Shown: piece by piece, positions 1-3,000 of the stretch
Position numbering within the stretch: the stretch's first letter is position 1
Layout: the number at the start of each line of letters is the position of its first letter
Assembly (NCBI RefSeq): GCF_056712565.1
Contig: NZ_CM160072.1
Direction: 5' to 3' (one strand)
Length of the DNA: 64,000 nucleotides
Program-made: the position numbers

Positions 1-3000
1 AATCCGGGATTATCTTCGACAACGATGAGGATAAGACGGATTCAGCAGCACTGTTGCCCTGCATCGAACAGGCCCGGGAGGATGTCCGTGCTGTTCGTCA
101 TCTGCAGCTTCTGCACCAGAACCGGTGAATATCACTCACCATACTTCATTCCCCTGACGCCAGCCTGAATACAGCTGGCGTTTTCGTCTATAAACCAAAA
201 GGAAAACCGATAATGTCAGACATCACAATCTCCCGTCCGGAAGTGGTCACCGGGCATACGGACGTTATCTGCTCCACCAGTATCCGACACGTTGTGACGG
301 TACGGAATGCAGCACTGCAACAAACCGAAACGCTTATCCGGCAACTGGCAGAAATCTCAGTGCTGACAGCAGGCATTGGCGGCAAAACCGCCCTGGACTG
401 GGCGATGAAACAGAATTTTCGCTGTGGCTGCTGGCTGATGGAAAAACCGGAAGCAGCAATGAAAGCCATCACCCGCAATCTCGATCGAGAAATCTGGCGT
501 GACCTGATGCAACGTTCAGGGATGCTTTCCTTAATGGATGCACAGGCCCGTGATACATGGTACCGATCACTGGAATATGATAATTTTCCGGAAATCAGTG
601 AAGCGAACATTCTGAGCACATTTGAACAACTGCACCAGAACATAGATGAAGTGTTTGAGCGAGGGGTGATCAACGTCTTCAGGGGACTGAACTGGAATTA
701 CAAAACTAATTGCCCCTGTAAATTTGGCAGTAAAATTATCGTCAACAATCTGGTGAGATGGGACCGGTGGGGATTTCATCTTATCACCGGGCAACAGGCA
801 GATCGACTTGCCGACCTGGAAAGAATGCTGTATTTGTTCAGCGGCAAACCGATTCCTGACAACCGGGAAAACATAACCATTCATCTGGATGATCACATCC
901 ACTCAGTTCAGGGTAAAGCGTGCTATGAAGATGAGATGTTCAGCATCAGATACTTTAAGAAGGGCTCCGCGCACATCACGTTCAGGAAACCAGAGCTGGT
1001 TGACAGACTGAATGATATTATTGCGAAATACTATCCGGAAACCTTATCGCCCGTTTAACCCAAAGCACAGACTCAGTACATACACAAAAACATTCTGATA
1101 AATCTGGCGTCATTCAGAGCAAAAAAACATGTTTTCCAGATTATTTGTAAAAAAACATACTCCAGCTATGGTGGCAGGTAGTCTGATATTTCTGTTCATT
1201 ATTCTGCTGACATTTTTCTGGAAAAAAGCAGAGCTGGTGAATGACAGCCAGATCAGAGTTAATTTCGCACTTGGCTATATAGAAAACATTCTCAATCAGA
1301 ACAACAGCATCAGCCAGGAAGCAGAACATTTGCTTCTGAATAACTGTAACGCAGATACTCAGCATGAATTAAGCAATCTGCTGCTGAAACGCCCACAACT
1401 TCGTGCACTGAGCCTGGCAAGACAAGAGGCTGTATTTTGTAGCACCCACCCCGGTTTACCTGTCGGTCCAGTTGCTGAAAAGGAACAGTGGCGGCACGAT
1501 ATGCTGATTCGTTTTCCTGAAGATACAGGTACTCTGCCCTGGATCCTGTTAAGAACACCTTACAAAAACGGCACGGTCATTACCGCCACGGATTATTATT
1601 TTATTCAGGACATCATCTCTGTGGTTCATGCGGTTCCTGCAATACGATTCCGTTTGGGAAACACGGTCCTGTCAGCCAGCGGAAAAAATGTCACTCTGCT
1701 CCCGGACGACAGCGGTATACAAAAAGAAAGTCATTCAAAAAAATATCCGTTCTCCCTGATTTATATCATCCCGGTGAAAATGCAACTTACCTACGCCTGG
1801 AAACAGGCCTGGTATATGATCCCTGTTGCCATCTTCGGTGGAATACTCACAGCCTTTCTGCTGTCCCGCCGACGTCCATCTTCCCCGCTCGATATGCTGA
1901 AAAATGCACTTGCTCACGGAGAGTTCAGACCTTATTTTCAGCCCATCATTTCCGCTAAAAATCACCAGCTAACCGGCTGCGAAGTACTGATTCGCTGGCA
2001 TCACCCCGTCAGCGGAATTATCCCACCAGATCAGTTTATCCCGCTGGCAGAGTCCACCGGATTAATTGCCCCGATAACGCAACAGTTGATGTCTCAGGTC
2101 GAACATAGCCTTAATTCTGTTGCGCATTTTTTACCGAATCAATTTCATATTGGGATCAATATTTCACCAGCGCATTTTCTGTCTCCGGGACTGGAGGATA
2201 GCTGTATGAAGTTTCTATCCACCTTCCCGAAAGGGAAAGTGAAACTGGTTCTGGAACTGACAGAACGAAACCAGCTATCCGTCACCGCAGAATCAAAAGC
2301 GTTATTTGCGAAATTACATCAACAGGGAGTATTGTTTGCACTGGATGATTTTGGTACTGGCTATGCAACCCACAGCTACCTGCAGTCGTTTCCTGTCGAT
2401 TACATCAAACTCGATAAAGGGTTTGTACAAATGGTCGGCGTGGATGAAATCTCCGGGCATATAGTAGAAAATGTTATTGAGCTGGCTCGCCGGTTAGGTA
2501 TTGATATCATTGCCGAAGTCATTGAAACCGAATCACAGGAATTGTTCATGACAGAGAAAGGAAGCTGCTATCTGCAGGGATACCGCTATGCACCTCCACT
2601 ACCCGCTGAACAGTTTATTGCTGAGTGGGTATACAACAGCGGAAACGGCAAAAACCAGAGATAACACATACTGAAATGGACCAGGATATGCGTCCCCCCC
2701 TTTCACCTCATCTCCCAACTCCCGGGTTTGATTCCTTTTTCACAGCAAAAGGGACTGAGGGTACAAAAGAGGGTACATTTTTAACCAAACCAAACAAAAT
2801 TAACCAATCTCAACATGATAGAAGCAATCTTCGATTCCGAGTCCGGCACCACTATTCTAAAGAACCCGCCCACAAGGCGGGTTTTTGCTTTTGGATCTTT
2901 ATATAAAATAAACTTGGGAGCATAACGCCATCAGGTCTTAAACACTCCCGAATCATCAATAAACATCCCCCGTTAACAAAACACAGTTCAGTTCACATAA

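Follow-up and report, generated by a model that had tools for sequence, protein, structure and literature searches.

We found that positions 2830-2898 of a 64-kb stretch of DNA (the window) almost certainly form the right attachment junction (attR) of a GI-pheV-class genomic island, which is 53-56 kb long and is described in APEC O1 as PAI I(APEC-O1), and that the capsule (kps) locus beyond the junction is a separate insertion. The boundary is real, ordinary and already published: the APEC O1 GI-pheV is listed as 55,888 bp (3,305,017-3,360,904) with attR TTCGATTCCGAGTCCGG-CACCA (PMC11537424, PLoS Genet 2024, Table 1), and its published end at 3,360,904 corresponds to window position 2851 in identical sequence. 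An earlier note made from this DNA had placed an island boundary at the same repeat, in agreement with the published coordinate. No evidence contradicting the attR assignment was found.

The attachment repeat

Read directly on the + strand, window positions 2830-2851 give TTCGATTCCGAGTCCGGCACCA, which corresponds to the 3'-terminal 23 nt of tRNA-Phe from E. coli with one G of a GGG run deleted; the 3' terminus of K-12 pheV reads ...GGTTCGATTCCGAGTCCGGGCACCA. The earlier note's description of a tRNA-Phe 3'-end copy of about 22 nt with one G deleted is therefore exact. We annotate this segment as the attR core, an imperfect direct repeat of 22 nt that corresponds to the final 23 nt of pheV (PMC11537424, Table 1). 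It matches tRNA-Phe at 22 of 23 nt, homology between attL and attR is limited to these positions, and the flanks of the two sites are unrelated on both sides.

We searched the window for further copies and found that the 22-mer occurs only once across both strands of the 64 kb, even when up to 2 mismatches are tolerated. The same 22-mer had no match in 100 dinucleotide-preserving shuffles, so no chance copy is expected. An ungapped search of the window with the full 23-mer and 3 mismatches returned nothing, which reflects the one-base indel rather than absence of the repeat. ARAGORN detected no tRNA anywhere in the 64-kb window, consistent with the earlier claim that no complete tRNA accompanies the repeat, and a permissive Rfam scan of positions 2500-3300 detected no tRNA or sRNA family. 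The Rfam matches in that interval (Trp_leader, P9 and STnc370) were all sub-threshold and driven by the terminator hairpin described below, and we rejected a structured-RNA reading of the region on these grounds.

A window without a full tRNA is the one observation in favor of reading the 22-mer as a chance match, or as a tRNA pseudogene that arose when pheV was duplicated locally and has since decayed. That reading is already refuted, and we put its probability at practically nil. Beyond the shuffle result, pheV homology at the right junction has an abrupt start at tRNA position 54, before which lies a conserved island arm present at two loci, while the downstream flank is pheV's own. The 22-mer is instead the distal attachment repeat of a pheV island, as the earlier note proposed and as the upstream pheV and integrase gene, the empty sites and the published boundary indicate.

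pheV, the integrase gene and the island in related genomes

Window positions 1-4000 are 100% identical to several complete ExPEC/APEC chromosomes (six counted), many of them labelled K1 and among them APEC O1, where window position 1 corresponds to 3,358,054. The pheV gene itself falls outside the window, and its surroundings are described here from APEC O1 and ZJ3920, which are near-identical ST95/K1 genomes. APEC O1 carries an intact tRNA-Phe gene (pheV) at 3,305,017-3,305,092, in the orientation of the repeat and, as in K-12, immediately following yqgA. The gene for a tyrosine recombinase (3,305,290-3,306,552) starts 198 nt after pheV and encodes a 420-aa integrase with matches to Arm-DNA-bind_3, Phage_int_M and Phage_integrase in Pfam and to an integrase domain in NCBIfam. 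ZJ3920, which is also 100% identical to the window over positions 1-4000, encodes an identical integrase protein adjoining pheV. The distance from pheV to the repeat is 55.9 kb in APEC O1 and about 53.3 kb in ZJ3920. Looking upstream for an intact pheV with a matching repeat was the check suggested in the earlier note, and both genomes contain the pair.

Between pheV and the repeat, the APEC O1 island carries tia, an IS21 element, the pap operon, pgtPCBA, ireA, a CP4-like module (antirestriction, RadC/JAB, CbeA/CbtA, DUF957 and DUF4942 genes) and, as its last gene, the EAL-domain gene. This tia-pap-pgt-ireA island stops exactly at the repeat, and the proposal that window positions 1-2851 are the end of an island is borne out. 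The features by which such an island is recognized are present: a target tRNA gene on the same strand, an adjoining tyrosine recombinase gene, a distal repeat of the tRNA 3' end, and an empty-site allele.

The distal (right) arm of the island occupies window positions 1-2829 on the + strand. Based on the APEC O1 RefSeq annotation and NCBIfam matches, it comprises the terminal part of a DUF957 gene (1-128), a DUF4942 gene (213-1058), a gene for a 511-aa EAL-domain c-di-GMP phosphodiesterase-like protein (1129-2664, +), and a 165-nt non-coding tail that runs from the EAL gene to 2829. The best NCBIfam match of the EAL protein, PRK10551 (c-di-GMP phosphodiesterase), scores 266 bits, below the curated cut-off of 461. 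Because islands at pheV and at pheU encode the same protein (WP_000492897.1), this gene can be called mobile, and we regard it as a mobile c-di-GMP signalling paralogue of putative activity. The arm upstream of the repeat is also found at pheV without kps (GPEC606) and at pheU (ST131 strain 4433 and strain E7).

The complete pheV gene lies at the left junction, where it is followed by AATTCATATCAACGGACCTCCACGGAGGTCCGTTTTTCG, a different hairpin that belongs to the island. This hairpin downstream of attL, GGACCTCCACGGAGGTCC, differs from the one on the attR side, and the pheV gene rebuilt at the left end would thus use an island-borne hairpin as its terminator.

The displaced pheV flank and its terminator

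Homology to the K-12 pheV locus does not stop at the end of the 22-mer. Window positions 2830-2898 (69 nt) align to the K-12 pheV 3' end, the native terminator and GCTTTTGGATCT as one block (95.8%, 71 columns). Within this block, positions 2852-2898 (+) align to the sequence directly after K-12 pheV and represent the original chromosomal 3' flank of the gene with its native intrinsic terminator. Both a terminator scan and a fold place a hairpin at 2861-2885, in which AGAACCCGCC (2861-2870) pairs with GGCGGGUUUU (2876-2885) around a CACAA loop (2871-2875), with a T-rich tail extending to about 2892. The stem has 10 bp, 6 of them G-C, and the 5-nt loop and second strand are followed by TTTTTGCTTTT, giving the G+C-rich stem-loop and T-tract of an intrinsic terminator. 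The minimum free energy of the fold is -22 kcal/mol, with the 10-bp stem within it.

The window hairpin is orthologous to the hairpin after K-12 pheV. As K-12 homology continues past the 22-mer through 2898, the alignment identifies this hairpin as pheV's own terminator, displaced together with the old chromosomal flank. It lies ~200 nt downstream of the EAL-domain gene. The earlier note had correctly recognized a GC-hairpin terminator at this place, and its reading of the element as a terminator stands; what it missed is the origin of the hairpin as the displaced native terminator of pheV. Likewise, it rightly joined repeat and hairpin into a single feature, but drew that feature too short, since the K-12-homologous block covers 2830-2898.

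In a separate observation, the spacer between the repeat and the terminator (window 2852-2862, compared with 3443-3454 of the extracted K-12 pheV locus) occurs as two alleles. The first, CTATTCTAAAG, is found in O170:H18 and in the window, and the second, CTAATTCTTAAG, in K-12, ST131 and GPEC606. These alleles track neither the presence of kps nor the presence of the island.

Proposed integration event

The two junctions have the anatomy expected if an integrase recombined a chromosomal attB with an attP mimicking the 3' end of the tRNA. We propose that the island, in circular form, encoded a P4-type tyrosine integrase and had an attP resembling the 3' end of tRNA-Phe, and that it recombined at the final ~23 nt of chromosomal pheV, with the integrase presumably catalyzing the reaction. 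At the left junction this would rebuild a complete pheV, and island DNA would come next, bringing a terminator hairpin of its own and, after that, the integrase gene. The old flank, with the native Rho-independent terminator, would be shifted about 55 kb downstream and come to lie behind a copy of the tRNA end of 22/23 nt. In its new place the native terminator, whose activity there is predicted, would be positioned to stop transcripts from the EAL gene, the last gene of the island. The K1 capsule block is an independent insertion, not bounded by att sites, between the pheV terminator and yghD/gspM.

Capsule block and empty sites

In the window, homology to K-12 breaks off at 2898 and picks up again at 21097, just within yghD. 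Alignment to K-12, gene content and junction comparison define the intervening 18.2 kb (2899-21095) as a separate insertion that carries the group 2 (K1) capsule locus, begins 48 nt past the repeat and replaces about 101 bp of K-12 sequence. The earlier note had put the capsule locus just beyond the repeat, where it indeed starts. The block contains a C-terminal remnant of an IS110-family transposase gene (3049-3231, +; APEC O1 annotation, NCBIfam), kpsFEDUCS (4041-11958), the neu genes of region 2 (about 12108-18556, -) and kpsT/kpsM (18606-20038, -). The first conserved backbone gene is yghD/gspM (21096-21632, -), which in K-12 is the immediate neighbor of pheV, as the earlier note had stated.

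When complete E. coli genomes are compared with a 181-nt junction probe, they fall into the expected classes, and we inspected one genome per class. Two of these provide empty-site alleles for the island. K-12 has neither insertion, and pheV is followed by the same terminator and then by yghD. O170:H18 has kps without the island, and its intact pheV is followed by the same terminator, the same IS110 remnant and kpsF, with no extra repeat. GPEC606 has the island without kps: the same EAL-ended arm, the G-deleted repeat and the terminator are followed by yghD. The window has both, with the island end, repeat and terminator followed by kps. ST131 also has both, with a different island arm and attR TTTCATTCCGATTCCGGGCACCA before the same kps flank. 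Because genomes exist with the island only, kps only, both and neither, the comparison indicates that the island and the kps block are independent acquisitions at one hotspot and that the repeat belongs to the island. The suggestion of layered acquisitions at a single hotspot is supported in both directions, by kps without the island in O170:H18 and by the island without kps in GPEC606.

The same comparison bears on whether the repeat could be the left boundary of the kps element, with kps having integrated at pheV and the 22-mer being its att scar. The short distance of only 48 nt between the repeat and the kps block is compatible with such an origin, as is the classical mapping of the kps locus beside pheV, yet we consider it very improbable. 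O170:H18 has the same kps left junction right after an intact pheV with no extra repeat, and GPEC606 has the repeat and terminator with no kps. A second pheV-derived repeat was not found at the far kps edge or elsewhere in the window, using either the 22-mer or all 11-14-mers of the tRNA, and the same arm and repeat also occur at pheU. We also compared the two edges of kps with each other (left, 2861-3400; right, 20091-21150) and found only chance 7-13-mers, so that an att-bounded kps block was rejected. The repeat is thus best assigned to the island.

Several further observations concern the capsule block and its surroundings. The IS110 remnant between the pheV terminator and kpsF is kept in kps strains both with and without a pheV island (ST131 and O170:H18, respectively), and it may mark the route by which kps arrived. 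In 1-kb windows, GC content across positions 12001-19000 (neuS to neuD plus part of kpsT) is 26-33%, versus 53-58% in the neighboring gsp backbone; the low GC of capsule region 2 indicates a separate foreign origin within the kps block. Further along the window, K-12 homology jumps from 22597 to 30598. The T2SS-beta genes in this interval (22598-30597), from the interior of gspL through gspD into gspC, are missing in K-12, and the gap appears to be a K-12 deletion that left the annotated truncated yghE and yghF.

The missing G

We examined how the one-base deletion in attR is distributed. The last 40 nt of the arm followed by the GG form occur exactly in 336 of 5,426 complete genomes, and the same arm followed by the GGG form occurs exactly in about 10 complete genomes. 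The GG form is found beside three right flanks: kps-type pheV (the window), K-12-type pheV (GPEC606), and pheU near cadC (ST131 strain 4433). GGG versions of the same arm are present at pheV in EC17CM7 and at pheU in strain E7. By published listing, the GG attR is spread over phylogroups A, B1, B2, D and E (PMC11537424, Table 1).

The GG form is thus linked to the arm and not to the flank, which suggests that the variant sits on the island side of the crossover. Because the GG form is tied to the arm while the attL tRNA is always perfect, strand exchange would be confined to at most the final 7 nt of tRNA-Phe (GGCACCA). A literature search for a mapped crossover point of the pheV integrase gave nothing usable, and the position of the exchange is therefore one that we infer from the repeats.

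One interpretation of the missing G is that it is a heritable feature of the attachment site, such that a mismatch would be laid down at attR upon each integration, braking excision and stabilizing the island. Recombination with attL may be reduced or lost through the deletion of this one base. PAI V of strain 536 is reported to excise (review PMC7545054, citing Hochhut 2006) and strain 536 is listed with the same attR (PMC11537424), which by analogy argues that the G-deleted attR type is at least sometimes recombinogenic. We consider this interpretation as a whole unlikely.

The deletion might instead be a decay of attR after integration, through slippage in the GGG run of one ancestor, spread by descent and by recombination or conversion and uninformative on mechanism. 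The rare GGG arms at both pheV (EC17CM7) and pheU (E7) fit such a history, and so do the identical EAL proteins encoded at both loci, where conversion tracts could reach the end of the repeat. Set against this, the GG form stands beside three unrelated right flanks in hundreds of genomes and extends across the five phylogroups listed above (PMC11537424), for which a variant borne on attP is the simpler account. We judge decay in one ancestor to be plausible, if on balance doubtful. Gene conversion between the near-identical pheV and pheU arms could also have produced the linkage of the G deletion to the arm, in place of an attP variant.

Significance of the boundary

The value of these findings is mainly for annotation: window positions 1-2851 belong to a mobile island with virulence cargo (tia, pap, ireA), the K1 capsule locus was acquired independently of it at this hotspot, and the site contains no tRNA pseudogene or new RNA. 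To the published boundary, our analysis adds the recognition of the hairpin as pheV's native terminator in a displaced position, a four-way comparison of island and kps presence, and the link of the G-deleted repeat to the arm at both tRNA-Phe loci. The terminator identity and the link between GG and arm should be useful for mapping the integrase cut. They leave knowledge of these islands unchanged, and none of these additions would surprise a specialist.

Relation to known islands

The closest known element is the GI-pheV of APEC O1 and S88 (intP4.3 type), first described as PAI I(APEC-O1), which is the same element with the same boundary. Its cargo in APEC O1 includes tia, pap, pgt and ireA (PMC3349570 and annotation). 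We found no substantive difference from the island in the window; island length varies by strain, as the shorter ZJ3920 island illustrates. An attR identical to that of APEC O1 is listed for S88, 536, ED1a, H10407, 55989, 042, REL606 and others (PMC11537424, Table 1). PAI V of UPEC 536, compared here via the literature, is likewise a pheV island adjoining a capsule locus, and shares the G-deleted attR (PMC11537424), the tRNA target and the pgt genes. It differs in carrying pix fimbriae (PMC11537424) and in its strain background.

The GI-pheV of the ST131 and CFT073 type (intP4.1) is integrated at the same site, and beyond the terminator its kps-side flank is also the same. In contrast to the window, its right arm carries DUF6088/AbiEii genes, and its attR has three substitutions in the left part of the repeat, with GGG intact.

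A further relationship is seen at pheU. The left-end hairpin and integrase leader of the pheV island are nearly identical to the sequence after K-12 pheU (an island stump with yjdQ). In a comparison of the K-12 pheU/yjdQ locus (4150-4551, minus strand) with the APEC O1 locus after pheV (20094-20290; both in extracted-locus coordinates), ~190 nt are near-identical, including the hairpin, the integrase leader and its first codons. This near-identity means that K-12 pheU retains a fixed P4-type island stump, with a "native" terminator derived from the island. At the pheU/cadC locus of strains 4433 and E7 (extracted-locus positions 5001-5450 in each), we observed a junction of island end, core and island start that resembles an attP, with a GG core in ST131 strain 4433 and a GGG core in strain E7.

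The pheU islands of these two strains have the same right arm and repeat as the window, placed at the paralogous tRNA-Phe gene. They differ from the pheV island in locus, lying beside cadC, and in what follows the repeat, which there abuts an older integrase remnant rather than the native terminator of pheV.
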